From the IMG/VR virus record IMGVR_UViG_3300009503_000022, positions 1 to 64,000 of that record: DNA of 64,000 bases; one strand, given 5' to 3'. This DNA comes from a virus. Each line of letters begins with the position of its first letter. Position 1 is the stretch's first letter. The notes beneath the pieces are model-generated. The model saw only the letters and a list, made by a program, of their open reading frames with translations. It was not told the origin of the DNA and searched no databases. Positions 11,546 through 37,783 of the stretch are shown piece after piece. The translations under genes were made by a program, and so were the position numbers.

Positions 11546-11612
11546 TTTTTCAAACCACCTATTTATACTCCCATAAATATTTTAAACTCTGATTCTATAT
11601 TCCTATAATTAA

Positions 11613-14399
11613 TTATAAACTACTACCATTAATAAAAATCTCATCAGGATTATAACCAGAAATTATCTTTTCAATCATTTCTCTGTCTTTTTTCAAGTTA
11701 ATACCCTTCGTACATCGCCAAATAACAACAACTTTTTTATCTTCTTTTTCACCAAAAACAAATACATATTTTCTTCCATCCTCTATAAGAAACTTATACT
11801 TATTTATAGTTAATCCCAAAAGATAATTAAATGTTTCGATTAAATCTATATTAACAATTTCTTCTCCTTTGTTACCTGAAATAATTTTCATTTTATATTC
11901 AAAAGGATTTTCAAAATCCTGAATGTTTAATAATGATTGACAACATTCGATTTTATGCCTTAAAAAATATTTCATTAGATATTCATTTCCAAATAGTTCA
12001 AATGCACTCTGCCCTTTGTCTTTGTTTACAAATTCAATATTGTGTAATGTATCTTCATATTGTTCAAGATAATGATATTTTAAAAAAACTCCAATTCCAT
12101 CTATATCCTGTGGTTTCCCCTCTTTCCAATTAAAAGAATAAGCAATTTTTTTCATTCTTGGAATAATAATAGTATCAAAATAATCTGCCATCTCTACAAG
12201 AATAAATTTTCTTTTACCTCCATCTTCTTTATTGAGTTTCATAACTGCGTGTGCGGTTGTGCCTGAACCCGCGAAGAAGTCAAGGATAAAAATTTTATCT
12301 TCTTCAATCATACTGATCAGAAATTTTATAAAGTGTATCGGTTTAATTGATTGTAGAGATATAAGTTCCATATCCCTTATTATTTTGCTTTCATTATTCA
12401 TATCCTTCTCAAAATCGTAGAAATCAAAATAAGAAATTTCTGTTTGGGCACTATTTAATTCCTTTCTTATCTTTAAAGGAATTCCTTGATAATAGACAGT
12501 ATTTATTGTTCTCTCATCAGGATTTTTTATATATCTGAAACCAAAACCATCATCACCTATGCCATAAACTTTATATAAATAGTTATAATTTTTTTCTTTT
12601 TCGAATAATGGTCTTAAGTTTTCTTCGTAAAATTTTTCAGTAAATTGAGCAGTTTTTATTTTCCCTCTTATTGATATAGGTTTAACAATATAAAAATCAT
12701 TTATCTCACTACATTCAATTATCTCATATTGGTCGGGTCTGAAACATTCTATTTTATATTTACCAATTGTAAAAGTTTTGAAGGGTTTATCTTTTTCTAT
12801 AATTTTTAACTTATATTCTGAAAAATCGTAATCAACTTTTTTCTTTTTTATAGACATTTTTTCTGATTTTGAAAATACCAAACAATACTCTATTGATTTT
12901 TGAAAAATAGATTTCTGTGTTAGTTGTCTAGCTGGGTTTCTCATTTTTATTTTTAATTTTTCAACTTCAAAATAAAAACTTCTCATTATATTATAAAGAT
13001 TACTGACTTCATTATCATCAATACTTACAAAAATAACTCCATCGTCTCTCATCAATCTCTTTGCCAAACTCAATCTATTTTCCATCATAGTAAGCCAAGA
13101 AGAATGCTGGTATTTATCCTTATAGAGAAATTCATCATTTCCTGTATTATAAGGTGGATCAATGTAAATAGTCTGCACTTTATCTTTATACTTATTCAAA
13201 ATCAAATTTAATGCCTGATAGTTTTCGCTTTTAATCAAAACTCCATCTAATAATTCATCAATATTTCCTTTCTCTGATAATTTTTCTAATAATCTTTCTT
13301 TAAAATCCTGACTGAAATATTTTGTATCTATAGGTAGTTTTCTGCCTTTTATATCATTTTTATCTTTTATTTTGCCAAACCCTAACTCCTCCCATTCCTT
13401 TAATTGCTGATTATTCTTAAAAATCTCATCATAAAACTCTAAAGGTATCCTATCCATTGTAATTACATATTCGGTTTTTAAAACAAATTTCTTCTTCTCC
13501 CATAGTAGTTTCTGAAATTCTTCAATTTGAGCAAGAAATTTTATAATTCTCTTTGCAATTTCATCAACAACCTTTGCTCTAATAATATGTTTTGATTCTA
13601 AATTATTAAGGTCAACAATCTCTGTTTTTATATAATAATCGAGTTCTCTTTCTAAAAATCCTTTCAAGTCCTTATGAATAAAGAAATCACTAATTTCAAT
13701 ATGCATATATTTACAAAGATGTTTTTCTAAAATTGTTTTATTATCTTTTATTTTCGAAAAAATTTCTTTAAGTTCAATTTCGCTAATTTGTTCAACAATT
13801 TTATCTTTTATAATATTATTAAGCATTTTTTGCTTTATATCTGCTGTTATTTTATAATTCTTAATATCTTCATCAGACAAATATCTATACTCAAAATATA
13901 TAATACAACTTTTTTGTTCTTTATTAACCTTGATAAAATCATTTTCCTTTAAGAAAAAATATTTTCTCTTATTATTGATATTTCTCACTTCTATAAAAAC
14001 AGTTTTAAATATAATCCTCCATCCTTCCAAATCAAAACTATAATCTTTAAAAATCTCATTAGTATTTACATAATACTGATCAGAATTTATCCAATAAAGT
14101 TTTACATCTTCACCACTATGAGGAATAATACACTTTCTTGAAATAAAATTACCATTTTCATAATATCTTAAAAAAAATCTATAAAGATCATCAAAAATTT
14201 GATTTTGCATAAATTCATCAATCTGATATTTATACTTCTCAAATTCACCTTCTATTACCTGAACAAGTTCACCTTTAACAAAATCTTCTATCTTCTTTCT
14301 TTTATAATTCATAATTCGATAAATACCAAAATCAAATTCACTAATATCAAATTGACACAAAATTCTAAATAATTTTTCTAATCTTTCTATCATACCCAT
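11613..14399 (-). CDS. mod: type III restriction-modification Mod-like adenine DNA methyltransferase (no res gene in the window)
   Basis: DFGIYRIMN N-terminus, IYIDPPYNTG, ILDFFAGSGTTAHAV, EQYEDTL, DLIETFNYLLG. Confidence 0.9.
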   Translation of the reverse strand: MGMIERLEKLFRILCQFDISEFDFGIYRIMNYKRKKIEDFVKGELVQVIEGEFEKYKYQIDEFMQNQIFDDLYRFFLRYYENGNFISRKCIIPHSGEDVKLYWINSDQYYVNTNEIFKDYSFDLEGWRIIFKTVFIEVRNINNKRKYFFLKENDFIKVNKEQKSCIIYFEYRYLSDEDIKNYKITADIKQKMLNNIIKDKIVEQISEIELKEIFSKIKDNKTILEKHLCKYMHIEISDFFIHKDLKGFLERELDYYIKTEIVDLNNLESKHIIRAKVVDEIAKRIIKFLAQIEEFQKLLWEKKKFVLKTEYVITMDRIPLEFYDEIFKNNQQLKEWEELGFGKIKDKNDIKGRKLPIDTKYFSQDFKERLLEKLSEKGNIDELLDGVLIKSENYQALNLILNKYKDKVQTIYIDPPYNTGNDEFLYKDKYQHSSWLTMMENRLSLAKRLMRDDGVIFVSIDDNEVSNLYNIMRSFYFEVEKLKIKMRNPARQLTQKSIFQKSIEYCLVFSKSEKMSIKKKKVDYDFSEYKLKIIEKDKPFKTFTIGKYKIECFRPDQYEIIECSEINDFYIVKPISIRGKIKTAQFTEKFYEENLRPLFEKEKNYNYLYKVYGIGDDGFGFRYIKNPDERTINTVYYQGIPLKIRKELNSAQTEISYFDFYDFEKDMNNESKIIRDMELISLQSIKPIHFIKFLISMIEEDKIFILDFFAGSGTTAHAVMKLNKEDGGKRKFILVEMADYFDTIIIPRMKKIAYSFNWKEGKPQDIDGIGVFLKYHYLEQYEDTLHNIEFVNKDKGQSAFELFGNEYLMKYFLRHKIECCQSLLNIQDFENPFEYKMKIISGNKGEEIVNIDLIETFNYLLGLTINKYKFLIEDGRKYVFVFGEKEDKKVVVIWRCTKGINLKKDREMIEKIISGYNPDEIFINGSSL

Positions 14400-14995: not shown

Positions 14996-17067
14996 ATATC
15001 TGTTATAATTTCGCCTGCTTGATATTCAATATTACTTTCTATAAATTCTCCTCCCTCTTTACTTTCTTTAAGTTCCTCTACAAATAACTGCTTAATTGCT
15101 CCAACAACAGTATCTGTCAAATCTTTTTCTCCTTCTTCTGTATGATCTACCTTACCATCTTCCTTTCTTTCTAATTGCTTAATTTCTGTTAACAACTCTT
15201 CTATATCTAATAATTCAATTCTTTGAGAATAAATAAATTCCATAAAATTATTATAATCTTTAACTGTTAACGTATATGCATCGGCTTTTATACCATCGTT
15301 CCTCAAATCTTGAATAAAAAGACTAGACTGCCAATGATCAAAAAATACTATAATATTTATTCTATTGGATATCTCTTTAATAATTTGTCTAATATTAGGA
15401 AACGATACTATATATCTTACTTTAGTTACTTTATCAATAGGTCTCCAAACAGTAGAACAATCGTGTATTGCTCTTGCACCTTCTCTATGAAAAATAGACA
15501 TTCCACATTTATCGTGCTTTTCCCCCAAATCTATAGTTAAAATATATGTAAAATCTTCTAATCCAATATTCCATTTCTTAATTTTTTTCTTAATCTCACC
15601 ATTTTCCATATAATCTTCAAATTCAACTATAGGTTTTCTAAATTCATTAACACAAGCATATAACTTATCTGGATATTCTATAAATGGTGATTGAGATCCA
15701 GGAGGCATACACATATACATTGACTTTGCCATTGTAGGATTACGATCAAAGGTTGATTTAAAATCTATAGGTATCTTATAAATTTTTTTAACATCATTAT
15801 TATTCTTATCCTTCACTATAACTTCAAAATCAAATGTAGGTCTATCTTTATATAATTCTTCTTTTACTTCCCAAGTAAACGCAGTATCTGCATATATATG
15901 CAAATCCGACTCTGCTAATTTAATTAATCGTTTAATAAATCCTGACTCTGTTCTTGGATAACTAATAACAAAACCTTTATATTTATTTCCAAATCTAGAT
16001 TCTGCAGACGTTTGAAGCATATTAAATATTTTATCTGCATTTCTCGTTTTAGTTTTATCTTTAAATGCATCTGCTTCATCCATAGTAAACATTAATAAAT
16101 TTAAACCTTCTGTACTCTCTTGTTCAGAATGCCTACTAAATAATCTTATTAAATTTGGAAATAATATAGCGTTTGTTCCAATTCTTATTTCATTTCTTAA
16201 TTCGACAATATCCTTTTCACTAATATATGAATTACTTATCTTAATATTAAAATACTGCTTAAACCATAAATTATTTATTACTCTTTGTTTTAATTTTTCA
16301 AAAAATACAAATTTTGCCTGTTCTCCTGAATATGCAACATTAACAATATCTATAGCTTCATTATCGGGTAATCCTAATAACTTCTGAGGATTATTACAAC
16401 ATAATAAAAAATAACAACAATATAAAGTCATAAGTGCACAAATTGTATCCTTACCTGAATTATGATGTAAAATATCATTTAAAATCATATTCTTATGTAT
16501 TGGAGAACAAAATCCATAAAATTCTTCTTCTCCAATCTCTTCTATACTTTCTATTTCATCAAATTCTAATATTTCATTTATTTTATATATATCATAATTA
16601 TATACGTGAAATTCTATATTCATCTTTTTTGCAAATTCTTTTGCAGCATTACATTTTATCTCGAATATAGGACTATTTTTAGTAAAATTACTTTTAATCT
16701 CTTCTATCCAAATTGAAGCATTTTCATTATCTATAACTAATAAATCTGGAATATAATTATGTTTAATTCCATCAATATAATACGGTATTTTCATAGGTTC
16801 GTGAAAAAATATATATCCATTATTATCTAATTCAATCATTCTTACTAATTCATAATTAGAATTATATTGTTGTATACCATTATTTTTAAATTTATATTTT
16901 CCACATTTTGCCTTACTCCTATTAAAAGTTTTATTTATAATTTTATTAGATATAGTTTCAGAATTATGTTCTTTATTCTTTTTAAATCTACATTTATCGC
17001 AATATTTTCTTCCATATACACTAATAAATAATGAATTACAATTTTTACATATCATTTCTTTTGGCAT
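14989..17067 (-). CDS. terL: terminase large subunit, C-terminal part: Zn finger + TnsA-like endonuclease + C-intein + ATPase remainder + RNase H-like nuclease
   Basis: YIPDLLV..EEIK (PD-D/ExK); ILHHN|SGKD splice junction; FTMDEAD Walker B; IDLGEKHD, FDHWQS, KVDH...KDLTD nuclease motifs. Confidence 0.85.
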   Translation of the reverse strand: MPKEMICKNCNSLFISVYGRKYCDKCRFKKNKEHNSETISNKIINKTFNRSKAKCGKYKFKNNGIQQYNSNYELVRMIELDNNGYIFFHEPMKIPYYIDGIKHNYIPDLLVIDNENASIWIEEIKSNFTKNSPIFEIKCNAAKEFAKKMNIEFHVYNYDIYKINEILEFDEIESIEEIGEEEFYGFCSPIHKNMILNDILHHNSGKDTICALMTLYCCYFLLCCNNPQKLLGLPDNEAIDIVNVAYSGEQAKFVFFEKLKQRVINNLWFKQYFNIKISNSYISEKDIVELRNEIRIGTNAILFPNLIRLFSRHSEQESTEGLNLLMFTMDEADAFKDKTKTRNADKIFNMLQTSAESRFGNKYKGFVISYPRTESGFIKRLIKLAESDLHIYADTAFTWEVKEELYKDRPTFDFEVIVKDKNNNDVKKIYKIPIDFKSTFDRNPTMAKSMYMCMPPGSQSPFIEYPDKLYACVNEFRKPIVEFEDYMENGEIKKKIKKWNIGLEDFTYILTIDLGEKHDKCGMSIFHREGARAIHDCSTVWRPIDKVTKVRYIVSFPNIRQIIKEISNRINIIVFFDHWQSSLFIQDLRNDGIKADAYTLTVKDYNNFMEFIYSQRIELLDIEELLTEIKQLERKEDGKVDHTEEGEKDLTDTVVGAIKQLFVEELKESKEGGEFIESNIEYQAGEIITDMM
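16459..17067 (-). mobile_element. C-terminal half of a split intein fused to a TnsA-type endonuclease
   Basis: FDEIESIEEIGEEEFYGF...NDILHHN followed by Ser+1. Confidence 0.8.
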
Positions 17068-17353
17068 ACGCGATACTATCTCCTATTTTCAATTCCTTTA
17101 TTTTTTTCCAACCATTTTTAGTATACAATTTATGATTCTCATCAACTTCTATTATTTTACCTAATTTTGTTTTTATTCTGTATATTTTTGCTTTACCTTC
17201 TTTAAATATAGGTTTAATCGTAGTAATAACCTTTTTTCTTTTATGAAAATCAATAGCTTCTACATTTATTGGTTTTTTCAAACTTTCCCACTCTTCTACT
17301 GTATGTCTTTCTTTAGTAATTTTATCTTCTATAATAGTACCTTTCCGAAAACC
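17045..17353 (-). mobile_element. N-terminal half of a split intein (starts with Gly)
   Basis: Hint block A/B-like motifs, ending at GDxIA. Confidence 0.75.
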
Positions 17354-26260: not shown

Positions 26261-27016
26261 TTATACAAAATCATCATCTTTTTTATTTTTATTCTTTCTA
26301 TTTTGTTCAAATTCATCGTCGTCGTCCTCTTCTATTTCTTCCTCTTTACTATCTTCGTTATCGTCATCATCATCTATGTCTTCGTCTTCATCTTTTTCAT
26401 TATCATCTGTATCTTCATCAACATCTTCACTTTTATTATTTCCATCATCTTCTTCTACATCTTCATCTTCCTCATCATCATCAATATCTTCATCATCTTC
26501 TTCTATATCTTCATCATCATTTTCTTTTTCATTTAATTTTTTAGCTTTTTTCATAGCCTGTTCGTTCTTTTCTATATTTAATTTTATTCTCTCGATCTCT
26601 TTTTCTAAAGATTCATCATCTATATTATATGGTAATATTTCCATAACAGTATTAAATGTTATATCACCTTTTTTAATAGGTTTAACATATATCTTATATT
26701 TTTCATTAATAGAATCATCTAAATCATAATCACTTAAATCTTTCCTACCTGCTAATCCATATAACATGTGCTCACTATCAAAACGTATAATAGGTCTTTC
26801 TTCGTCATCTAATATAGTCCATAAAGTACCAAAAGCCATTGCTCCTTTATATTTTTTATTTAAAATATCAAAAAATAATGTTATACCTCCAGCAATACCA
26901 TTTTTACCCTCATAAAAAAACTTTTTATACTTCTTAAATCTAGCAACATAAATCTTTTCTGGCAAAATCATAAACTTCTTATTCTTTTCTTTACCTTTAT
27001 TTACATATATTTTCAT
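26261..27016 (-). CDS. putative single-stranded DNA-binding protein with a very long acidic tail
   Basis: OB-like N domain; D/E-rich C-terminus ending DDDFV; next to recA. Confidence 0.55.
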   Translation of the reverse strand: MKIYVNKGKEKNKKFMILPEKIYVARFKKYKKFFYEGKNGIAGGITLFFDILNKKYKGAMAFGTLWTILDDEERPIIRFDSEHMLYGLAGRKDLSDYDLDDSINEKYKIYVKPIKKGDITFNTVMEILPYNIDDESLEKEIERIKLNIEKNEQAMKKAKKLNEKENDDEDIEEDDEDIDDDEEDEDVEEDDGNNKSEDVDEDTDDNEKDEDEDIDDDDDNEDSKEEEIEEDDDDEFEQNRKNKNKKDDDFV

Positions 27017-27049: not shown

Positions 27050-27084
27050 TAATTATATACAAAAATTCTATTTTTTTTAACATC
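27050..27084 (-). promoter_or_regulatory. class B promoter-like motif
   Basis: GATGTTAA-N19-TATAATTA upstream of the SSB-like gene. Confidence 0.6.
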
Positions 27085-27566
27085 TAAATCTTATTATATA
27101 AAGAAACAAATCCATCATTATATACATAAAGTTCTATAATATCTGCTTTAACTGTATTAAGTATATAATTATTCCCATATATTTCTTTAAAAACAATAGC
27201 TTTAACTCCTGCATTTATCAATTGACCTAAACATAAATTACACGGAGAAACAATACAATATAAAATAGTATCTTTAGTAGATATACCATTTTTAGCACAC
27301 ATTAATATTGCGTTTATCTCTGCGTGAACTGCAATACACAATTCTAAACTTTTACCTGATTCAATATTTTTCTTGATTCTTAAACATTCCTTACAATGAG
27401 GATATTTACTTGGTGCTCCATTATATCCTGTAGATATTATTCTGTTATCTTTAACTAAAACTGCTCCTGTCTGTCTTCTTAAACACGTAGACATTTTCGC
27501 CATTTTTTCTGCAACTTCCATAAATATTTTATTAAACTCACATTGTCTATCCGTATTTTCAATCAT
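27084..27566 (-). CDS. dCMP deaminase (ComEB family)
   Basis: STCLRRQTGA, TGYNG, HAEINA, PCNLC. Confidence 0.9.
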   Translation of the reverse strand: MIENTDRQCEFNKIFMEVAEKMAKMSTCLRRQTGAVLVKDNRIISTGYNGAPSKYPHCKECLRIKKNIESGKSLELCIAVHAEINAILMCAKNGISTKDTILYCIVSPCNLCLGQLINAGVKAIVFKEIYGNNYILNTVKADIIELYVYNDGFVSLYNKI

Positions 27567-27569
27567 ATT

Positions 27570-29015
27570 TTACTTTTCTTTCAAAAGTTTTATATCTATC
27601 GAAGATAATTCGTCACTTTTTAATTCATTTCTAATTTCTTCAGAAGTAGGAATATATATACCCAATTGCTTCATAATTTTTTCTCTATCAGAACAAACTG
27701 TATTTATAGATGCATAATCTGAAACATCATCATCAACTTTATTTCGACCACAAGGTTTAAATAAACGTCCAAAACAATTACTTAAATAATAAGATTTTGC
27801 ATATTCACATTTATTCTTTAAATCACATGACGGAAAAAGATATTTCGCTAATAATGGAAATACTTTTTCTACTTCTTTTCTACATAACCAAGCAAAAGCA
27901 ACTGTAGCATCTGCTTCGCAATTATGTAAAGCACAATTCATAGTACAATACGAATTATGTTCTTCGACTTCTAAATTATATACTTTACCTGTATATTTTG
28001 AATTAAACTTTATTATACCACAAATCTTACTAATTTCATATTTTTTTGTAAATTTTTTATCTTGATCTATAATCGGAAATGCTACGAAATCTCCTTTATT
28101 TAATTCTTCAACTTTAATAAAATCTAATTTATTGTATATCTCATTATTTGAAATTTTATTAATAACTTCTTTTTTAATACCATATACTTTATGATTTCCT
28201 GTAATATTAAATGTATATAATTTAAAATTAGATGTATAACTTATATTATATATATCCGAATAACAATCATTACTTATAGTCTCTATAACTTTTTTAAATT
28301 CTCCTAAATGAGTTAAAACCCTTTCACCTATAGATATATCTTCAATATTCTTTAACCCATTTTCTGTTATTATCTTTGTCCCGGGCATCAAACAAAATTT
28401 CATTCTTTTAGACAACATATTTTGCAAAGCAGCAAAATTACAAGAAAAACTAAATGCATGAGTATTTGAAATTGGAAGTATACTTCTAGCAGATTGCCAA
28501 TTAGATATTCCTTGTTCAACTATCTTTTTATAAACATCCTTACATTTTTTAGCAGCTTCAATAAAATCTTTTCTTAATTCTTCGTTTTCCCAAATATCAT
28601 CATGAACAAAAAATCCAGCATCTAAATGAGAATTATCTCTAGTACCTCTACTAGAAAAAACAATACCAACTCTAGCTCTAGCTATTTGATCAAATGCCCA
28701 GCGAGGAATATTTTCTACAGCAAATGTAAAATGAGGAGCTTCTAATGCTAACGGTAACGCATTTCTTGTAAGAACGGCTTTAATCACTTCATATTTACCC
28801 TCAAGCGAAGTATCTTCCCATTTATCAATTTTTTTACCCCAACAAGATGTAGCTAATACATACATTGCTTTATATGGATTTCTAGAATAATCAATCAATT
28901 TAACAGAATCTTTCATTCCTGTAACTCCATTATAAAAAACTGTTTTAAATTCAGGATCTTCATCTGGAAGCGTACCCATTATTTTTCTTAATTTATTAAT
29001 ATCATTTTTATTCAT
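27570..29015 (-). CDS. thyX: divergent flavin-dependent thymidylate synthase (ThyX-like) with a mini-intein
   Basis: ALE.PHFTFAV, QIARARVG...SSRGTR (altered RHR motif), QSARSILP. Confidence 0.75.
   Translation of the reverse strand: MNKNDINKLRKIMGTLPDEDPEFKTVFYNGVTGMKDSVKLIDYSRNPYKAMYVLATSCWGKKIDKWEDTSLEGKYEVIKAVLTRNALPLALEAPHFTFAVENIPRWAFDQIARARVGIVFSSRGTRDNSHLDAGFFVHDDIWENEELRKDFIEAAKKCKDVYKKIVEQGISNWQSARSILPISNTHAFSFSCNFAALQNMLSKRMKFCLMPGTKIITENGLKNIEDISIGERVLTHLGEFKKVIETISNDCYSDIYNISYTSNFKLYTFNITGNHKVYGIKKEVINKISNNEIYNKLDFIKVEELNKGDFVAFPIIDQDKKFTKKYEISKICGIIKFNSKYTGKVYNLEVEEHNSYCTMNCALHNCEADATVAFAWLCRKEVEKVFPLLAKYLFPSCDLKNKCEYAKSYYLSNCFGRLFKPCGRNKVDDDVSDYASINTVCSDREKIMKQLGIYIPTSEEIRNELKSDELSSIDIKLLKEK
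27921..28394 (-). mobile_element. 158-aa mini-intein in the ThyX-like gene
   Basis: F|CLMPGTKI...TGNHK...VYNLEVEEHNSY...LHN|C. Confidence 0.9.
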
Positions 29016-29043
29016 TAAATCCTCCTTTTAAAATCTATATTTT

Positions 29044-32000
29044 TTATTTCCTTAATTTAATTATATAATTTTCATACAATTTTTTTAAATCTAAAACTCT
29101 TTGATCTCCATTACATTGCAATATTGGAACTCTACCTTTATTATCCTTCTTTAATTTTAAAACAACAAATCTATCTTTTCGTAATAATTCTTTATTATTT
29201 TTATACTCTTTATCCCAAGCAAAAAATGTTATTTTAGAATAATCATCCATCAAACTTATTACATACATATTTTTATTCTTTTTAGTTTTTCGCATCAAAA
29301 CACTTTCTATCATACCATATACATACGATTCTCCTTCGGCTAATTTACAAAATTCAGTAATAGACATTATATTTAATTTCTTAAAACATTTTTTAAAATC
29401 ATCTTTAAATATCTTATCAGACAAATAAACTTTTAATGCGTCAATTTCTAATTTCATAAGATCTTTTTTACTTAATTCTACAAAATTTTCTTCACTTTTT
29501 TTAATACTATAATATTCTTTTAATAACTCATTTCTATCATCAAAAGAATCAAATGCTCCAGAATAAATCAAATATTCTACTTTAGTTTTATTACATTTAA
29601 CTTTATCTAAAAAATCTTTAAAAGATTTAAATGGCCTCTTTTTTATTATTTCTTGTCCTAAATTACCAATATTTTTTATATGATTAAACCCATATATTAT
29701 TGTATTATCATCTAAAATAGAAAAATCTAACTGTGATCTATTAATATCTGGGTTCAAAACATTTATACCATTAATTCTAGCATAATTAATATAATCAGCA
29801 AGAAAACTAGTTGTATTTTTTCCTTCTTTGCCTCTTGGAGTATTATTTATCAAAGCAGTCATAAATTCTATAAAATAATATTTTTTAAGCCACATTTCTT
29901 GATAACTTATCATTGCATAACCACAAGAATGAGAATTATGAACTACAAATTCATTAGCGATATAACAATGATTAATATCTTCTACTTCAATATCGTATGT
30001 ATGTCTTTTACCACAATATTTTATTTCTTTTACTACATCTAAATCAAATATATTAAAATCTCTTAAAAATATAGTTATTTCCATACCCTTTTCTAATTCG
30101 GACAATTTTAACCAATTTCTAAACACTAAAAATTTATGATCTGCAGAACTTATTATCTGTCTATTATCTCGAGTTTTTAATACATAACATTTTTTAATTC
30201 CAGTATCGTAAACATTTTTTATTTTTACAGGTTTAAGCTTTCCATCAATATACGAACATATATATATACTTTTATTAGATGAATGAAATTTTTTATACAA
30301 TTCGCATATTTCTATTTCATCAACAATTCCTTTTTTAACATTAGTATAATACAATACCTTAGAATTTCCTGCTAAACATTTATTAAATCCATATTGAGAA
30401 AATGATGCCATTTCTTTCCATAAATTTTCTGCTTGTTCTCTTGTAATAAATTTAGTAGCATTATTTATAAATTTATCTTTATATGATTCTACCTCTGCAA
30501 ATCTTTTAGATTCTACCTCTGCAGATCTACCATATTTAACTAATGCTTTTCTAAATCTATTTGCTTCAACTAAATCAAAATTCGCGATTTTTTGAGCAAT
30601 TAACATAATAGATTCTTGATAAACTATTATTCCATAAGTTTCTTTCAATATATCTTCTAAACATTTTGGTATAGTATATTTCCCAGTAAACTTTCTTTTA
30701 GCAAAATCTTCGTGCATTCCTAATCTTAAAGGACCCGGTCTTAACAATGCATTCGTCGCAATTAATTCATTAAAATTACTTGGTTTAATTTTAGCAATCA
30801 AATCTCTAGCAATCCTCGATTCAAATTGAAATATTCCTACAGTATCTCCATTCCATATCTTTTTATAAACATTTATATCATTCAAATCTATAGAATCTAA
30901 ATTAATATCTTTATTATATCTTTGTTTTATTAATTTTAAAGTATCTCTTATAACAGACAAATTAGTTAATCCCAAAATATCAAATTTAACAAATCCTAAT
31001 TTAGATAATTCGTGATAATCAGACCCTTCTTGCCAAGCACTTAATATATTATTTTTTTGTGTCATCAATGCAATATTTTCACTTAAATTTCTATCTGATA
31101 TAATTATTCCTGCTGCATGCCTACTTATATTTCTAATTTTTCCTCTTAACTTTTCCAATATTTTTTTAACTTCAGGATATTTATCAAAATAATCCTTAAC
31201 TTCAGGAAAATTATTTTCTATTTCCTCTATTGTCATATCGTCACTATCAGACGTCAATACATCTCTAGTTAATCTTAAAGATTCTATTAAAGGTATATTT
31301 AACACTCTACCTATATCTAAAATTGCACTTCTTGTTTTAAAAAATCCATAAGTACCTATTGCACAAGTTTTTTCTTTAGAAAATCTATTAAAAATATATT
31401 CAACAACTTTATCTCTATCATCAGAAGAAAAATCTACATCAATATCTGGAGGATCCTCTCTACCTTCGCTCATAAATCTTTCAAATAATAACCCATATTT
31501 AATAGGATCTAATCCTGTAATATTTAATAAATAACAAACAAGAGATCCTGCACCTGATCCTCGTGCTTTTCCTACATAAATATTATTTCTTTTAGCCCAA
31601 TTAATTATATCTTCTAAAATTAAAAAATAACCAACAAACCCTAATTTTTTAATAATCCCTTCTTCATATTTAACTCTATCTCTATATATTTTTTTAGTTT
31701 TTTCATCTAATTTATCAAAACCTTTTTCTTTCCAGCCTTTCACTAATTTATTATGAAAAATCTCTTCATCATTATCATATAATTTAGGTAATTTAATAGA
31801 AGTATCTAATTCGATATTTTCTACTTTATCAATTATTTCTCTTACGTTTTTAACAGAATCTTTATAAACTTCTTCTGTAAAATATTCATTTTCATAAAAA
31901 TCTTTAAATGATCTATACATTTCAAACTGATTTTTATAATATAAATCTTTAGACTTAAATTGCCATATTTCATCAGGATTTTTTTCTTTATCTTTCATCG

Positions 32001-33267
32001 TTTTATTATCTCTTATCATTAACAATATATCGTGAATTTTACTATCTTCTTTTTCGATATAATGACAATCATTAGTAATAACAGTTTTTATTCCAAGTTC
32101 TTTTGCTAATTTACACAATAATTTATTAATAATAATCTGTTCTTTTAAATCTATTAATAACAACTCTATATACAAATCATCTCCGAATATTTGTTTATAA
32201 TTTAATGCTATTTCTTTTGCCTTATCATAATTATTTTTTGATAACTCAGTAGATATCTCTCCACCTAAACAACTAGTTAAACAAATTAATCCTTCGGAAT
32301 GTTTCTTTATAAATTCTATATCAGTTCTTGGCTTAAAATAAAATCCATTAATCCAAGCATCTGAAGAAATCTTAATTAAATTATTAAAACCTATTTTATT
32401 TTTAACTAAAAGTATAATATGATTATTTTTTTTAAATAATTTATAATCTTCACTTTTAACATTATCCTTATATTCTAACTTATTACGATAATTATTTATA
32501 TATAATTCGCATCCAAAAATAGGTTTTATTCCATATTTTTTTGCTTCAAAATATTGTCTTATCCATCCACCAATTTGACCATGATCTGTTATACTACATA
32601 CATCTAACTTATTATTATAAGCAAATCTAACATATTCTTCAGGAGAACATAAACCATCTCTAATAGAATAAATACTATGACAATGTAATTGTACAAATTT
32701 ATTCCTATTATTTTTTATTTCGTCAATTTTATCTTTTATATTTAAAAGTTGTTTAGAATATTCTTCTATTTTCATTTTTCCATAATTACAAAAACTTGGA
32801 TGATAAATAGAATAATATAAAATACCTTTTTCTACTTTTAACTCATTATTTTCTTTTAATCCAAAATAATTAGAAGCAAATTTACCTACAGTTATTATTA
32901 TTTTAGGCCTAACTATTTCTATTTCTCTTAATAAAAAATCTTTACAATTTTCTAATATATCATCTGAAGGCATAACATTATTCTTAGTAGAACATTTTAC
33001 AAGATTAGTTACATAAATATCTTCAAAATCTAAACCTACATTTTTTAACATAGATTCAAATATTGGTCTTATTTTATCATCTAAAAAAATTTTATTATTT
33101 ATTCCTCTATTATCTCGATAACAAGAAGGATTCTGTGCTATAAACATTATATCTGCTTTTTCATTTCCAGAATATTCTACTATTTCTTCATTTACTTTTA
33201 TAGATATTTTAATTTTACATTTTTTACAATTTCTACATTCTTCGTATATATTTTTAATATCATTCAT
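29044..33267 (-). CDS. dnaE: DNA polymerase III alpha subunit with an N-terminal uracil-DNA glycosylase-like domain and a mini-intein
   Basis: N-term CRNCKKC, TNLVKC, IYHPS (UDG); LHCHSIYS, ITDHG (PHP); RGSGAGS, PDIDVD, KFDILGL; YGFNK|intein|SHS. Confidence 0.95.
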   Translation of the reverse strand: MNDIKNIYEECRNCKKCKIKISIKVNEEIVEYSGNEKADIMFIAQNPSCYRDNRGINNKIFLDDKIRPIFESMLKNVGLDFEDIYVTNLVKCSTKNNVMPSDDILENCKDFLLREIEIVRPKIIITVGKFASNYFGLKENNELKVEKGILYYSIYHPSFCNYGKMKIEEYSKQLLNIKDKIDEIKNNRNKFVQLHCHSIYSIRDGLCSPEEYVRFAYNNKLDVCSITDHGQIGGWIRQYFEAKKYGIKPIFGCELYINNYRNKLEYKDNVKSEDYKLFKKNNHIILLVKNKIGFNNLIKISSDAWINGFYFKPRTDIEFIKKHSEGLICLTSCLGGEISTELSKNNYDKAKEIALNYKQIFGDDLYIELLLIDLKEQIIINKLLCKLAKELGIKTVITNDCHYIEKEDSKIHDILLMIRDNKTMKDKEKNPDEIWQFKSKDLYYKNQFEMYRSFKDFYENEYFTEEVYKDSVKNVREIIDKVENIELDTSIKLPKLYDNDEEIFHNKLVKGWKEKGFDKLDEKTKKIYRDRVKYEEGIIKKLGFVGYFLILEDIINWAKRNNIYVGKARGSGAGSLVCYLLNITGLDPIKYGLLFERFMSEGREDPPDIDVDFSSDDRDKVVEYIFNRFSKEKTCAIGTYGFFKTRSAILDIGRVLNIPLIESLRLTRDVLTSDSDDMTIEEIENNFPEVKDYFDKYPEVKKILEKLRGKIRNISRHAAGIIISDRNLSENIALMTQKNNILSAWQEGSDYHELSKLGFVKFDILGLTNLSVIRDTLKLIKQRYNKDINLDSIDLNDINVYKKIWNGDTVGIFQFESRIARDLIAKIKPSNFNELIATNALLRPGPLRLGMHEDFAKRKFTGKYTIPKCLEDILKETYGIIVYQESIMLIAQKIANFDLVEANRFRKALVKYGRSAEVESKRFAEVESYKDKFINNATKFITREQAENLWKEMASFSQYGFNKCLAGNSKVLYYTNVKKGIVDEIEICELYKKFHSSNKSIYICSYIDGKLKPVKIKNVYDTGIKKCYVLKTRDNRQIISSADHKFLVFRNWLKLSELEKGMEITIFLRDFNIFDLDVVKEIKYCGKRHTYDIEVEDINHCYIANEFVVHNSHSCGYAMISYQEMWLKKYYFIEFMTALINNTPRGKEGKNTTSFLADYINYARINGINVLNPDINRSQLDFSILDDNTIIYGFNHIKNIGNLGQEIIKKRPFKSFKDFLDKVKCNKTKVEYLIYSGAFDSFDDRNELLKEYYSIKKSEENFVELSKKDLMKLEIDALKVYLSDKIFKDDFKKCFKKLNIMSITEFCKLAEGESYVYGMIESVLMRKTKKNKNMYVISLMDDYSKITFFAWDKEYKNNKELLRKDRFVVLKLKKDNKGRVPILQCNGDQRVLDLKKLYENYIIKLRK
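29935..30378 (-). mobile_element. 148-aa mini-intein in dnaE
   Basis: FNK|CLAGNS...SADHKF...TYDIEV...VVHN|SHS. Confidence 0.95.
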
Positions 33268-34010
33268 TTTTTTAAAAATATTTTAGGTCTATCATTCCAA
33301 AAACAAACTGGTAATTTATTACAATACATATTTATTTCTTTCAAAAATAACTTAGACATCTGTCTAGGACTATATACATTATTCGAATAATAATACTCTT
33401 TAAAATGACCATAAGCACAAAATTTAAACGTATTATTAATCACTAAATATTTATTACAAACATTTAATAATTGATGTAATAAATCTATAGGATATTCAAT
33501 ATGTTCAAACAATTCTAACAAAAAAATTACATCATATTTTCTTTCAAATACATCTTTTTCATTATTTAATATCTCTATATCATTATTTTTAATTTTATTA
33601 AAATATATTTTTTGTATAGAATTATCTAAATTATAATAATATACTTTTGAATTTTTAAAAAGATCACTTATTAAATTTGTAGTTAATCCAATTCCTACGC
33701 CATAATCTAATATAGATTTTATATCTTCATTTTTTAAAACACTATAAGTTTTTAATACAGTATCTTTAGAAAATCTAACAAAACATCTTAAAGCAGCATA
33801 TAAATAAATATCTTTAAAATATATACTAAAATCTTTATAACCATTACCTTTACACCAATAATCATCAATAGAATTTTCTAACTCTTCTACGTCTTTAATA
33901 CTCAAATTCTTATTTAAAAATATATTAATATTATTCAATAAGTCTTTATATTTATATTTATTTAAAATTTCGTTCATATTTATATCATTCATATTTATGT
34001 AATGATCCAA
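33264..34010 (-). CDS. class I SAM-dependent methyltransferase
   Basis: ILDYGVGIG, YDVIFLLELFEHI. Confidence 0.8.
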   Translation of the reverse strand: MDHYINMNDINMNEILNKYKYKDLLNNINIFLNKNLSIKDVEELENSIDDYWCKGNGYKDFSIYFKDIYLYAALRCFVRFSKDTVLKTYSVLKNEDIKSILDYGVGIGLTTNLISDLFKNSKVYYYNLDNSIQKIYFNKIKNNDIEILNNEKDVFERKYDVIFLLELFEHIEYPIDLLHQLLNVCNKYLVINNTFKFCAYGHFKEYYYSNNVYSPRQMSKLFLKEINMYCNKLPVCFWNDRPKIFLKK

Positions 34011-34449
34011 ATATACATATTATATCATTACAATATTTTATTTTTAAAGATTTAGACAAATCTTTTAAAATCCAACTAACTATAGACACATCTTGTTTTA
34101 ATTTCTTAATATCACAACTTCTCCAATAACTTATAACTCTAAGTTTTTTTGAATCAAATATAAATTGTAAAAATGAAATACACATATATATATTTTTCTC
34201 ATAATCTAAAAATCTCAAAACACATTGTCTAGTATCTATATTATTCTTCAAAAAATTTACTAAATAATTTTTATTTTTTAAATATTGCGATTTAATAGAT
34301 TTAAATTCTCTTTTATCACCAACTACTTTATTAATAAGTTTTAATTTCGTACTATATCCTATAATTTCTTTAGTTAATAAATTATTCCTATATATATTAT
34401 TACCATAAAGTTCTAAATCATTATAAATAGATATATAATCTTTTTTCAT
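33985..34449 (-). CDS. minimal thymidylate synthase / dCMP hydroxymethylase-fold protein
   Basis: DTRQCV, MCISFLQF (catalytic Cys), YWRSCD......D, GSLHKY. Confidence 0.75.
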   Translation of the reverse strand: MKKDYISIYNDLELYGNNIYRNNLLTKEIIGYSTKLKLINKVVGDKREFKSIKSQYLKNKNYLVNFLKNNIDTRQCVLRFLDYEKNIYMCISFLQFIFDSKKLRVISYWRSCDIKKLKQDVSIVSWILKDLSKSLKIKYCNDIICIFGSLHKYE

Positions 34450-34455
34450 AATCTA

Positions 34456-34980
34456 TTATCCTATTATTTTATCTAAAATAGTTCTTAATTGACGCTTAGA
34501 ATAAGATAAATCATACGAATTATCAATAAAATACATCTTATCTTTATTTTTTTGATAATACATATTATAAGCATCATATAATTTATTATATATATTTATA
34601 TCGTTAATATTATGATCTTTTCTATTATAATATCTATTTAATAATACTTGACGATCAACATATATGTACAAATATATTATATTCTTAAATCTATAACTAT
34701 TAATATAAGAAATATCAGATTTTCTCTTAAATATTTTATGGTATATCACAAATGTAGGTATAAATCTATCTAATATTATATTTACATTAGCCCTATCTAT
34801 ATGTTTTAATAAATTAATTTCATTAATTTCTATAATATGTTGTAAATTCATCATATTTTCCCATTCTTTTTTATTAGTATATTTATATCTATTATATATA
34901 GGAATATTATATTTTCTACTTACATAATTAGCTAAAGTTGTTTTACCACAACAATCTATGCCTTCAAATACTATTATCAT
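34456..34980 (-). CDS. deoxynucleoside monophosphate kinase (Tmk-like)
   Basis: FEGIDCCGKTT, ILDRF. Confidence 0.85.
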   Translation of the reverse strand: MIIVFEGIDCCGKTTLANYVSRKYNIPIYNRYKYTNKKEWENMMNLQHIIEINEINLLKHIDRANVNIILDRFIPTFVIYHKIFKRKSDISYINSYRFKNIIYLYIYVDRQVLLNRYYNRKDHNINDINIYNKLYDAYNMYYQKNKDKMYFIDNSYDLSYSKRQLRTILDKIIG

Positions 34981-35882
34981 TTTTCAAATCCTATAATATC
35001 TTTTAATGAATTTATTCTTATAATGTTCGTATTTATATATCCCTGATTATATTCATTATTCAATAAAAATACTCTATATCCTAAATTAGCTAAACTATTA
35101 GCATAATTCAAATCATCTTCTATTATAAAATTTGCTTGAGGTAAAATTTTAACAATCTTATCTGATTTATCTTCATCGAAAAACAATGCATCGCATTTTA
35201 AATTATTCTTATTAATCCAATACAACGTATCATAAAAAATTCTAACATATTTCTTATATGGTCTAGCACTTAATAAAACTATCTTATAACCTTTACTACT
35301 TAAATAATCTAACAACTCCTTTGCATAAGGCATTAATTCTAATTCTCTTTTAATTCCAGAAATTCTATATTTATGTTTCAAATCTTTATAATTTCGTAAT
35401 TTATGCAATTCGTCAAATTTATAATTTGCATTTAATTCTTTATTTACAAAATCAACAATCGCTTTATGATAATTTGCCAAAACTCCATCTATATCTACTA
35501 TACAAATTTTTTGTTCATCTTTAAGTAAATTTAATTTAATTTCTTGTTTCCATCTTTGGTATACAACTTCAGATTTATCTTTAAATTTTTGCTTAAAATC
35601 TTCAAATGAAAAACCCCATATTTGAAATAATCCTAAAAGAAACTTTTGACAATCAACCAATTCCTCTAATAAATTATCTAATATAACCTCTTTTTCTTCT
35701 TTGCGATGCATCTTCCAATTAATACTATTTAATACTTCAATTGTTTCAGATATAATACTCAAAATAATTTCTTTAGTCCAATATTGTTTTTGCTCTATAC
35801 TAAATTCATCCATACTAGTTCCACGATACTTATAAAATTCTTCATTAAACTTTTTTTGTATTTCCCAAATCTCATTATCCAT
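34977..35882 (-). CDS. dimeric dUTPase/MazG-like NTP pyrophosphohydrolase fused to a HAD 5'-nucleotidase
   Basis: SETIEVL..INWKMHR...EELVD; VDIDGVL, LSAR, IIEDD. Confidence 0.8.
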   Translation of the reverse strand: MDNEIWEIQKKFNEEFYKYRGTSMDEFSIEQKQYWTKEIILSIISETIEVLNSINWKMHRKEEKEVILDNLLEELVDCQKFLLGLFQIWGFSFEDFKQKFKDKSEVVYQRWKQEIKLNLLKDEQKICIVDIDGVLANYHKAIVDFVNKELNANYKFDELHKLRNYKDLKHKYRISGIKRELELMPYAKELLDYLSSKGYKIVLLSARPYKKYVRIFYDTLYWINKNNLKCDALFFDEDKSDKIVKILPQANFIIEDDLNYANSLANLGYRVFLLNNEYNQGYINTNIIRINSLKDIIGFEK

Positions 35883-35885
35883 ATT

Positions 35886-36773
35886 TTATATTCCTTTACT
35901 AATATCTATAGACTTTTTTATAACTTGATTTATTCTAATATTATGTTTCCACTCTGCATATCGTCCTAAATATATTATATCAGGGTTTTCTATTAATTTT
36001 AAATTTTCATTTATTATTTTTCCATATTTTTCAATATAAAATGCAATATAAGATTTATGCAAATAATCATTATATTTATCAAAATCATCACCTAAAAATT
36101 CTATAACAGAAATTTTATCATTTATTCTTGTTACTCTATAAAAAGGTATAATATTATCTATAAAATAAACAAAATCATATTTTTTTGGAAAAATTAAATT
36201 TATTACAAAAAATGAAATTGGTTTATAATAAGAAAATTCATTTTCGATAAATGTATTTGTTAATTTAATAAATACTATAGCGGGAATAGTAGAAACAATT
36301 TTATCGTATTTAAACGTTGTAGATTTTGTATATATCAATTTATTATTAATATCTATTGAAATAATATCATCTATAATTATATCTTTTTCGAATTTCTTAT
36401 AAAAAAATTCTATTAATTTTTCATAATCAAATTTCCAATATCTAAAAGTACTTTTACCACTATTCATTATCCCGTCGATATTTACATCTCTACTTGTTTT
36501 CTTAATATAATCTTTTATTACAGAATCATTAAGTTTATCATGAAAATCACCATTATAATAATATCCTATATTACATACAGATCGATGAAATTTAACAAAT
36601 CTACCAATATCTCTAACAAATCTATTAGAATATTTATCTAAATGCAAATATCGGGGACCTAATTGAAAATTCGATCTTAACTGGCCCCCGACATCTTTTG
36701 TTATTATTTTATATTCTGGGTTATAAAACTTAAATATTAACCCAGCAATACCACCACCTAAAATATATTTCAT
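35886..36773 (-). CDS. FAD-dependent oxidoreductase (UDP-galactopyranose mutase/amine oxidase-like fold)
   Basis: ILGGGIAGL, GPRYLH, YDKIVSTIP, LGRYAEWK. Confidence 0.75.
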   Translation of the reverse strand: MKYILGGGIAGLIFKFYNPEYKIITKDVGGQLRSNFQLGPRYLHLDKYSNRFVRDIGRFVKFHRSVCNIGYYYNGDFHDKLNDSVIKDYIKKTSRDVNIDGIMNSGKSTFRYWKFDYEKLIEFFYKKFEKDIIIDDIISIDINNKLIYTKSTTFKYDKIVSTIPAIVFIKLTNTFIENEFSYYKPISFFVINLIFPKKYDFVYFIDNIIPFYRVTRINDKISVIEFLGDDFDKYNDYLHKSYIAFYIEKYGKIINENLKLIENPDIIYLGRYAEWKHNIRINQVIKKSIDISKGI

Positions 36774-37783
36774 TTTTCAACCTTAATAGAATATTTTTCA
36801 CCATCTTTTATTATCTGAGCATTTTTTGGTTTATATTTATCTACATTTAAAATATAATGAATACGTTTTTTAATATAATTTTTATCATAATCGTACATTT
36901 TAGTATTAATAATTTTTTCAGCTACTTCATCTATTGTATATAAACCTTCACTAAAAATAGAAACTATAGTTTTAGATAAAGGTTTTCTCTTTACCTCGTT
37001 TGTTTTATTTTCGGTCATATTTACCTCCTTTTCATTTGTTTCAGTTAATTCATAATCAGGCGGAATTTTACATTCATCTATATATTTATTATCTAAACGT
37101 TTAAATATAAGCTCACCTCCTATATTAGATTTTAACGTTACTTTAGCTCCTTTCTTGGTCAAATATATTACGCCCATTTTAGCATCTTTTGCTAACACTT
37201 TATTCATATTATCTCCTCCTTTTATTATTATATTATATAATATATCACGAAATTTTCTCTTTTTTAACATACTAATCGACGCTTTGCTTCTTCTTATTCC
37301 AAATTGCGTTTTTAAACAATATTGTATATCTTTTAATTTATAACCCTCTAATCTTAACTTAAAAATATATGCCTCTATATCACTAAGACGTTTCGATATA
37401 AATTCTATAAGTTCATCATATTCTATTTTATCTATAATATCAGAATCAGATACAACTATTTTATCAAAAACTTCTTTACGAACATTTTTCCAATATGCGT
37501 GCGTTTTAACATCCTCGTCAAAATTTTTATCATCATTTTGATCTAAAGATTCAAAACATTTACTTTGATCATAAAGTTGTTTATATCTTCGGCGTAAACA
37601 AAAAGTGAGAAATGTTGAATATTTTGATATTTTAGAATTATACTTCTTATTTTTATATAATTCCCAACATTTTATCCTACCTTCTTGAACTAAATCTTCA
37701 AACGAATATCCTGGTATATTATAATTTTTAGCAATTGATTTTATCAATGGTTCTTCTTGTTTTAATAATTCTTCAAATGTCAT
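36770..37783 (-). CDS. sigma-70 family (group 3/4-like) factor with a C-terminal extension containing two internal starts
   Basis: EDLVQEG...YSTF (region 2), LSDIEAYIF...GYKLKDI (region 4); in-frame SD+ATG at 37207 and 37018. Confidence 0.8.
   Translation of the reverse strand: MTFEELLKQEEPLIKSIAKNYNIPGYSFEDLVQEGRIKCWELYKNKKYNSKISKYSTFLTFCLRRRYKQLYDQSKCFESLDQNDDKNFDEDVKTHAYWKNVRKEVFDKIVVSDSDIIDKIEYDELIEFISKRLSDIEAYIFKLRLEGYKLKDIQYCLKTQFGIRRSKASISMLKKRKFRDILYNIIIKGGDNMNKVLAKDAKMGVIYLTKKGAKVTLKSNIGGELIFKRLDNKYIDECKIPPDYELTETNEKEVNMTENKTNEVKRKPLSKTIVSIFSEGLYTIDEVAEKIINTKMYDYDKNYIKKRIHYILNVDKYKPKNAQIIKDGEKYSIKVEK

Follow-up and report, generated by a model that had tools for sequence, protein, structure and literature searches.

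The window analyzed here, the first 64,000 nucleotides (64 kb) of IMG/VR virus record IMGVR_UViG_3300009503_000022 (110,355 bp, estimated to be 76% complete), derives from an uncultured phage whose genome has ~25% G+C (75% A+T). Inside its replication region lies a block of eight genes, all confirmed on the minus strand between positions 27084 and 36773, in which adjacent genes either share 4-26 nt or lie 3-28 nt apart. An earlier, sequence-only reading of this DNA had described the genes as tightly coupled, as is borne out here, and had identified them as an FAD oxidoreductase, a dUTPase/MazG-HAD fusion, a dNMP kinase, a 154-aa protein with a ThyA fold, an S-adenosylmethionine (SAM) methyltransferase, a UDG-DnaE fusion, an altered ThyX and a dCMP deaminase. 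These family assignments hold by Pfam and PHROG matches, profile comparisons and structure (Table 1). Judged from the genes and their relatives, there is about an even chance that the block represents a widespread, virus-only nucleotide-pool module, which would most likely provide a non-canonical pyrimidine, substituted at C5, to the polymerase of the phage.

Table 1. Features of the eight-gene block and of the gene directly upstream of it, with positions in the window.
Feature	Positions	Strand	Basis
Compact virus-only flavoprotein, UDP-galactopyranose mutase (UGM)/amine-oxidase fold, 295 aa	35886..36773	-	Structure and profile; GxGxxG N-terminal
MazG-HAD fusion gene	34977..35882	-	
MazG/dimeric-dUTPase-like NTP pyrophosphatase domain, aa 1-120 of the fusion	35523..35882	-	dUTPase_2 22.5 bits (cut-off 22.9); phrog_173 9e-9
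HAD 5'(3')-deoxyribonucleotidase-like domain, aa 121-301 of the fusion	34977..35522	-	NT5C 34.6 bits (cut-off 24.8)
P-loop (d)NMP kinase, 174 aa	34456..34980	-	phrog_761 thymidylate kinase 2e-15; N-terminus dTMP-kinase-like
Mini-TS, 154 aa	33985..34449	-	Thymidylate synthase (TS) fold by profile and structure only
Class I SAM methyltransferase, small-molecule type, 248 aa	33264..34010	-	Methyltransf_23 9e-9
UDG-DnaE fusion replicase, 1407 aa	29044..33267	-	Pfam UDG (7e-18), PHP, DNA_pol3_alpha, fingers, HHH_6
Family-4 UDG-like domain, motif A = AQNPS	32698..33267	-	Profile against family-4 UDGs 3.5e-25 (S. tokodaii UDG)
Mini-intein in DnaE, aa 964-1111, 148 aa	29935..30378	-	Intein_splicing match; insert relative to L001 DnaE between GFNK and SHS
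ThyX-like protein, 323-aa extein plus intein	27570..29015	-	Thy1 (PF02511) 71.7 bits, 9e-20
Intein in the ThyX-like gene, aa 208-365, 158 aa	27921..28394	-	Hint domains
dCMP deaminase, 160 aa	27084..27566	-	PF00383 6e-22; phrog_174 1e-41
Sigma-70-like factor, translationally coupled upstream	36770..37783	-	Sigma70_r2 2e-8; phrog_1740

The ThyX-like protein shares the Thy1 fold with canonical ThyX (T. maritima TM0449 and others), its Thy1 domain scoring well above the Pfam cut-off of 24.8 bits over residues 39-206, with the remainder of the domain following the intein. It also retains Arg residues aligned to the dUMP-binding R78, R80, R90, R147 and R174 of the T. maritima enzyme. It departs from the canonical form at other positions. 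Where the ThyX signature calls for RHRx7SxR, the window reads RARVGIVFSSRGTR, and RxR without the signature His is found in 14 of 16 members of the subfamily. The position of T. maritima His53 is occupied in the subfamily by a small residue (Ala, Ser or Val), that of Ser88 is aligned by HMMER to Gly, and a C-terminal extension of 70-100 aa carries a conserved C..C..H..C pattern (16 orthologs). An intein-free ortholog from a related locus (L001) falls below the equivalog level (41.7 bits, where TIGR02170 sets a cut-off of 87.9), the subfamily profile reaches ThyX structures in the PDB at only 1e-14, and a phmmer search of the PDB with the window protein gives no match at 0.01.

The ThyX-like gene comprises 481 codons, and this odd length results from interruption by an intein whose first residue is Cys, whose last residues are HN and which is followed by another Cys. 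The insert is precisely absent from the L001 ortholog, whose sequence is 58% and 54% identical to the window protein on the two flanks. Thus, the "altered ThyX" of the sequence-only reading stands as far as the motif is concerned, the alteration being common to the subfamily, whereas the unusual length belongs to an intein that was overlooked there, as was the one in DnaE. The intein alone was considered as the cause of the alteration and rejected, because intein-free orthologs carry the same altered motif. The window therefore has two inteins in adjacent replication genes, and the family-B DNA polymerase of another related locus (L007, 13335-17129) likewise bears one (Intein_splicing, aa 562-952).

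In a complete relative, G002 (111 kb, the record of locus L010), the ThyX-like form (53 bits) is accompanied by a canonical ThyX of 241 aa (132 bits); the two genes, at 11264-11875 and 16567-17205, are ~5 kb apart. This coexistence argues that the ThyX-like form has a task of its own and is not simply a dTMP synthase, and it agrees with the earlier proposal that the gene set exceeds what dTMP synthesis needs.

Similar comparisons can be made for the flavoprotein. Its family, of which 31 homologs were collected, consists of proteins of ~300 aa, nearly all of them viral, and forms Atlas clusters of its own that are 95-100% viral. The 295-aa window protein itself has no match in Pfam (including PF03275 GLF) or NCBIfam, and its profile match in the PDB spans only ~95 residues. 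However, its Atlas structure resembles Amino_oxidase/GLF clusters with a TM score of 0.85, and the family profile matches eukaryote-type UGM (Glf) at 1.5e-7 by way of the YFPE..PF.R and GR...W motifs. Residues G6, G8, G11, R213 and R271 are invariant or almost so, and they align with the motifs of A. fumigatus UGM that carry the active-site Arg, such that the GxGxxG segment and both catalytic-site Arg residues have counterparts in the phage protein. In contrast with UGM, which is 370-510 aa long, the phage protein is compact, restricted to viruses and often fused to MazG, and no sugar-pathway partners accompany it in this genome.

Immediately downstream of the flavoprotein gene is the MazG-HAD fusion, which is kept in at least 12 loci. 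In four of the sequences compared (L011, L013, L019 and P0054), the MazG domain is fused to the flavoprotein.

The 154-aa protein, referred to here as mini-TS, is encoded by a gene that overlaps the methyltransferase gene by 26 nt. A word-index search with this protein finds only itself, an exhaustive HMMER search recovers 19 relatives of 150-175 aa, and related loci yielded eight further short relatives and one that is fused to a glycosylase, giving a size range for the family of 150-210 aa. The window protein has no match to Pfam PF00303 at E<=1, yet 18 of 19 family members match it, the best at 2e-12. Five residues, R74, C90, R110, D120 and H151, are invariant over 28 mini-TS sequences and correspond to R126, C146, R166, N177 (here Asp) and H207 of E. 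coli TS in a profile comparison with TS structures in the PDB (2.6e-16); equivalents of the catalytic Cys146 and of the phosphate-binding Arg166 and Arg126 are thus present. The top profile match in the PDB is the N229D mutant of L. casei TS. An AF2 model built with the alignment has a pLDDT of 95.3 and a pTM of 0.89 (a model from the single sequence, with a pLDDT of 36, was not used), and Foldseek places it with known structures at 1e-10 and a TMq of ~0.8. Its structural neighbors, by VIA Z over 151-153 aligned residues, are the CMP hydroxymethylase MilA (16.5), the dCMP hydroxylase AfhB of phage HY126 (16.2), T4 dCMP hydroxymethylase (14.6) and ordinary TS (~14).

The model corresponds to TS residues 1-210 less ~55 residues, with the final 54 residues absent, and the profile alignment reaches only residues 109-209 of E. 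coli TS. Based on these alignment ranges, the folate site is missing, both in the region of E58/W80/W83/Y94 and in the C-terminal lid. As modeled, then, mini-TS is a TS core reduced to its minimum, in which the nucleotide site is intact and the Asp is of cytosine type, without a visible folate or flavin site. The earlier suggestion that both TS-type enzymes of the block have atypical active sites therefore applies to each at the level of its family. Three positions before the Cys, at the equivalent of Leu143, the window protein has Ile and most of its family Leu or Met; mini-TS thus lacks the acidic residue of hydroxymethylases, which is described as the rule for water access at this position (PMC13326640). 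At the position of Asp169 the window reads RSCD, and the family has mostly Asp and some Glu or His, with no Asn in the first 19 members.

A partner for mini-TS is suggested by several observations: its gene overlaps or adjoins the ThyX-like gene in five loci, the cofactor site is empty, and there are clusters in which TS is fused to a pterin-binding domain. One such Atlas neighbor cluster of mini-TS (146 members, ~397 aa, mostly bacterial, with Cyanobacteriota as the commonest phylum) combines a TS domain with a separate pterin-binding domain (PF14251) and MtrA, and hints that a minimal TS core can borrow its cofactor from another module. In a related locus (L011, 12281-13174), a single ORF joins mini-TS to an HhH-GPD domain that best matches MBD4 (2e-11) and the Mig T:G glycosylase, a combination of which no description was found.

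The replicase of the window carries at its N-terminus a UDG-like domain, a fusion shared by three related loci (L001, L016 and L018). Among ten homologs of this domain, the Fe-S ligands Cys14 and Cys17 and the N-P, TN..K and HP (H156, P157) elements are invariant. Motif B (HPS) conforms to that of family-4 enzymes, whereas motif A has the consensus GQNPS in place of the family-4 GEAPG. The PDB structures matched by the domain include some labeled "phage SPO1 DNA polymerase-related protein". Of the smaller genes, the dCMP deaminase has orthologs in six related loci. The methyltransferase shows weak similarity to UbiG and to the plantazolicin methyltransferase and has an ortholog in L006 (3e-68) and a similar enzyme in L014.

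In phage T4, dCTP is replaced through the combined action of a dCTPase/dUTPase (gp56), a dCMP hydroxymethylase (gp42), a dNMP kinase (gp1), a dCMP deaminase (cd) and a thymidylate synthase (td). The window resembles this arrangement in that its replication genes are accompanied by a pyrophosphatase, a dedicated kinase, a deaminase, a thymidylate synthase and a TS-fold enzyme whose specificity position is Asp, and mini-TS superimposes on the T4 hydroxymethylase over 151 residues. It differs in that the T4 enzyme has 246 aa, whereas mini-TS lacks the folate segment and the C-terminus and has a hydrophobic residue rather than Asp or Glu at the L143 position; moreover, the thymidylate synthase of the window is ThyX-like, not ThyA, and a flavoprotein, a nucleotidase and a methyltransferase are added. 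It could be that the phage nevertheless follows the T4 scheme, with MazG as the dCTPase, mini-TS making a 5-substituted dCMP (methyl, hydroxymethyl or hydroxy) with a partner that supplies the one-carbon unit or the flavin, the kinase phosphorylating this product, and the ThyX-like protein and the deaminase serving only to make dTMP. Such a replacement of cytosine as the main outcome seems unlikely. It would account for the Asp at the Asn177 position, for structural neighbors that are enzymes of cytosine nucleotides, for the match to the L. casei mutant and for the parallel with T4, and functions suited to the repair of deaminated 5-methylcytosine are attached to the module in the form of the MBD4/Mig-like fusion, a Vsr-like ORF in L003 and the Asn of the UDG-like motif, as in MUG/TDG. 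However, mini-TS cannot bind folate as known TS do, and both Pseudomonas phage PB1 (see below) and 7 of 18 loci do without it, while the core of flavoprotein and ThyX-like protein is constant, so that this core is left unexplained.

A flavin-dependent variant of the cytosine scheme is also disfavored by sequence. The 5-hydroxy-dCMP (5hodCMP) synthases, with D169N as the diagnostic substitution, do set a precedent, favorable to a modification pathway, for TS-fold enzymes that rely on flavin and not on folate (PMC13326640; PDB 9iqu/9iqc). These enzymes (RB69 gp48, DLP3 gp80 and HY126 AfhB) act on dCMP, are also small, at 217-234 aa, and carry Asp in place of N177 (PMC13326640). Mini-TS is another 60 aa shorter and has nothing to hold the flavin; its assignment as a 5hodCMP synthase was rejected because it keeps Asp169.

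Bacillus phages with hydroxymethyluracil (hmU) in their DNA (SPO1, SP8 and phi-e) possess a dUMP hydroxymethylase, a dCMP deaminase, a dTTPase/dUTPase, a dTMP nucleotidase, an hmdUMP kinase and a UDG-like domain in the polymerase. The window has the same list of activities, including the pair of pyrophosphatase and nucleotidase and the family-4 UDG-like domain fused to the replicase. The enzyme acting at C5 in the hmU phages is a full-length ThyA-type hydroxymethylase with Asn, whereas the candidate in the window is ThyX-like and its TS-fold protein has Asp.

The sequence-only reading had called for a gene-neighborhood search for this combination of genes, and the set indeed recurs in divergent viral contigs. 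Twenty IMG/VR loci retrieved through the flavoprotein and two retrieved through a mini-TS relative were compared by scoring all of their ORFs with profiles of the window proteins; co-occurrence is counted over the 18 non-redundant loci with usable flanks, except for the kinase family, which was counted over 20 loci. The ThyX-like gene is present in 17 of the 18, as are MazG and/or HAD, mostly as the same fusion, while mini-TS is found in 11, and 10 have a UDG-like protein, either on its own or as part of DnaE; the kinase family occurs in 15/20. The loci range from 25 to 53% G+C, and their replicase is either DnaE or a family-B polymerase (PolB), which means that neither dTTP supply for an AT-rich genome nor linkage to one type of replicase explains the set. 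Related loci add further enzymes, including SDR proteins of sugar-nucleotide type (six loci), radical SAM/SPASM proteins (four loci) and methyltransferases (the window, L006, L014 and L015), together with a Vsr-like protein, a nucleotidyltransferase, an aldo-keto reductase and a dCTP deaminase. Tailoring enzymes of these kinds (SDR, radical SAM/SPASM, methyltransferase, aldo-keto reductase and nucleotidyltransferase) are typical of hypermodification clusters. The Vsr-like ORF, with the fold of a T:G mismatch endonuclease, lies between the SDR and ThyX-like genes of L003 (15677-16255) and may be a repair or a homing-type nuclease.

These comparisons bear on a more ordinary explanation, in which the block merely supplies and sanitizes nucleotides for an AT-rich phage: deaminase, ThyX and kinase would lead to dTTP, MazG would be a dUTPase, UDG would remove uracil, the flavoprotein would reduce flavin for ThyX, mini-TS would be a regulatory or degenerate nucleotide-binding protein, and the DNA would contain canonical bases only. 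Each named function exists in standard dTMP pathways, and the composition of this genome and the dUMP-site Arg residues of its ThyX-like protein, the only TS-type candidate in the 110-kb record, would suit such a role. We nevertheless give this explanation a small chance, since the module extends to genomes of 53% G+C and to one with a canonical ThyX as well, the MazG-nucleotidase fusion destroys nucleotides instead of supplying them, and the Cys, Arg and Asp of mini-TS are invariant, which argues against decay. In addition, the radical SAM, SDR and methyltransferase genes in the modules of relatives have no role in dTMP synthesis, and PB1-type phages that carry the core have been reported to contain modified DNA (PMC12191111).

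The Pseudomonas phages of Pbunavirus (PB1, F8 and 14-1), along with relatives that include Wifcevirus, in fact share with the window the ThyX-like protein (RxR without His, with the Cys tail), the UGM-like flavoprotein, MazG, HAD and DnaE. PB1 gp61, whose motif reads RTR, matches the ThyX-like profile at 1e-33 with the Cys region included; gp68 matches the flavoprotein profile in hmmsearch at 1e-8 and, along 214 columns, in hhalign with a probability of 95.5%. Of the other products, gp57 is DnaE, gp51 resembles MazG and gp59 contains a HAD phosphatase domain. Relatives of gp68 occur in 362 phage records, among them phages of Pseudomonas, Escherichia, Serratia, Rhizobium and Xanthomonas, and that of F8 is 97.6% identical. 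PB1 differs from the window in that its core genes are scattered over ~13 kb, MazG and HAD are unfused, the flavoprotein is distant, mini-TS was not found, and there is no UDG domain and no dCMP deaminase within the 24-kb stretch examined. According to a 2025 preprint, the DNA of F8 and 14-1, close relatives of PB1, contains novel thymidine derivatives of 362 and 390 Da, read as tetrose-alcohol and pentose derivatives, at about one quarter of thymidines in a TG context; the phages are said to carry no known modification genes, and no genes were assigned (PMC12191111). Wifcevirus phages, for their part, resist restriction without any known protection (PMC11990801, the BASEL paper).

The reported thymidine derivatives also weigh against the possibility that the product of the module is not a DNA base at all. 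In that event, a free nucleotide or nucleoside would be made or destroyed as a counter-defense, for example against nucleotide depletion or signaling by the host, or a sugar-nucleotide would be made for another target. The flavoprotein keeps UGM residues that bind the nucleoside diphosphate, relatives have SDR and nucleotidyltransferase genes, and MazG-HAD would give complete dephosphorylation, all of which would agree with a non-DNA product. It is nonetheless very improbable, given that the module always neighbors the replicase, to which the UDG domain joins it in a fusion, that a dNMP-type kinase is present, that fusions to DNA-repair glycosylases occur, and that relatives of PB1 have been reported with modified DNA (PMC12191111).

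The supply of a C5-substituted pyrimidine to the polymerase would accommodate these features most readily in a pathway that is probably pre-replicative, or mixed pre- and post-replicative. The constant core consists of the ThyX-like protein, the UGM-like flavoprotein, MazG and HAD, and it would most likely act on dUMP, yielding a C5-substituted uracil able to carry a sugar-type group; ThyX chemistry, the sugar-nucleotide flavor of the accessory genes and the Pbunavirus data are all consistent with this. The ThyX reaction can stop at a hydroxymethyl-type product. From the observed gene identities, folds, conserved residues, fusions and co-occurrence, we infer the chemical steps and the identity of the base as follows. 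The deaminase would convert dCMP to dUMP, and the ThyX-like enzyme would functionalize C5 without the final reduction, leaving a hydroxymethyl or exocyclic-methylene-type intermediate. This enzyme has lost the His residues that canonical ThyX uses around the flavin and folate and has gained a putative Cys/His metal site. The UGM-like flavoprotein could then prepare or couple the sugar-type group, while MazG-HAD would drain the competing canonical nucleotide, the kinase would re-phosphorylate the product for DnaE, and the methyltransferase would provide a lineage-specific tailoring step. Mini-TS may be a cytosine-type add-on that combines covalent Cys chemistry and dNMP binding with the lack of a folate site; its substrate would probably be dCMP or a 5-substituted dCMP, and it would probably work alongside a partner, in many cases the ThyX-like protein to which it is translationally coupled. 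Conceivably, the UDG-like domain polices uracil-type or deaminated bases at the fork. The lineage of the window thus appears to add to the core a T4-like set (mini-TS with Asp, kinase and dCMP deaminase) and a tailoring methyltransferase.

The sequence-only reading had favored an uncharacterized pathway of pyrimidine modification, probably of cytosine. Recurrence of the gene set, the atypical enzymes and the missing description in the literature searched support the pathway as such, and the preference for cytosine is not secure, as only the Asp of mini-TS speaks for it, and the core shared with PB1-type phages and the modified thymidine of their relatives speak for the other base. The repair-type features (MBD4/Mig-like, Vsr-like and the Asn-type UDG motif) fit a 5-substituted cytosine, while the core would fit thymine.

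Other points tell against the supply of a modified C5 pyrimidine. The ThyX-like gene, being the sole candidate for a TS-type dTMP synthase in the 110-kb record, may simply encode the thymidylate synthase of this phage, and the Asp of mini-TS sits poorly with a pathway confined to uracil or thymine. The link between the PB1 genes and the Pbunavirus modification is co-occurrence only, the preprint reporting the modification is not peer reviewed, and PB1 gp68 is distant kin of the window flavoprotein (17% identity). The co-occurrence figures are conditional on the flavoprotein, through which the loci were mostly retrieved. Furthermore, no GT1/GT2 glycosyltransferase was recognized in the 110-kb record or in the complete G002, and no SDR, DHFR or arabinose genes were found in the 110-kb record, which leaves no candidate for sugar transfer in this phage and also weakens DNA glycosylation of the RB69/RL38JI type as an explanation.

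A more far-reaching form of the proposal can be envisaged, although it is rather improbable: the ThyX-like protein and the UGM-like flavoprotein would carry out an undescribed flavin-N5 chemistry that adds a sugar-derived C/O substituent at C5 of a deoxypyrimidine nucleotide, mini-TS would perform a folate-independent, Cys-only exchange at C5 of a cytosine nucleotide, and one or two undescribed bases would result.

The surroundings of the block are those of a replication region. Upstream is the gene for a sigma factor, followed by those for primase and DnaB, with a helicase loader also on this side; downstream are RecA, SbcCD-like proteins and RuvC. The gene for the sigma-70-like factor (337 aa) shares 4 nt with the flavoprotein gene, and the long C-terminal part of its product has no family match; L001 has a shorter sigma-like gene at this place. 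At the other end of the block, the deaminase gene is followed directly by a 251-aa ORF (26261-27016) with no Pfam or PHROG match and no homolog in 20 related loci. GC skew is about -0.2 to -0.55 throughout the window (1-64000), and nearly every gene lies on the minus strand.

Among cultured phages, direct searches with the window sequences gave no close relatives. The region has no megablast match among GenBank phages, tblastn of mini-TS and two flavoproteins finds nothing, and direct tblastn with the AT-rich window proteins gives no close relative in 50,697 GenBank phage records; tblastn of the ThyX-like protein against GenBank phages returns only canonical ThyX at 24-30% identity. Searches for related loci with mini-TS, DnaE and the mini-TS relative P0003 as queries likewise gave no close relatives. 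A set of genes in Streptomyces phage Zuko (kinase, MazG, a hypothetical protein, ThyA, deaminase and PolA) was considered and rejected as a different, ordinary set, its hypothetical protein failing the flavoprotein profile and its ThyA being full-length.

No description of the present gene set was found in the literature searched. The kind of system, a phage pathway built from a TS-type enzyme, a pyrophosphatase and a kinase, is known, and its form here is undescribed in that literature, the distinguishing parts being the non-canonical ThyX, the virus-only UGM-like flavoprotein, the MazG-nucleotidase fusion and the half-size TS fold. Mini-TS would be the smallest TS-fold protein with an intact nucleotide site, and a ThyX paralog that does something other than dTMP synthesis, if confirmed, would extend the chemistry of flavin-dependent nucleotide enzymes. 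Modified phage bases decide whether DNA is cut by restriction enzymes, CRISPR systems and modification-dependent nucleases, and they have yielded useful enzymes. Pbunavirus phages are used in therapy, and the module holds obvious candidate genes for their sugar-type thymidine. As the module occurs in cultured phages, with hundreds of records, and in many metagenomic records, its function is directly testable in PB1 or F8.

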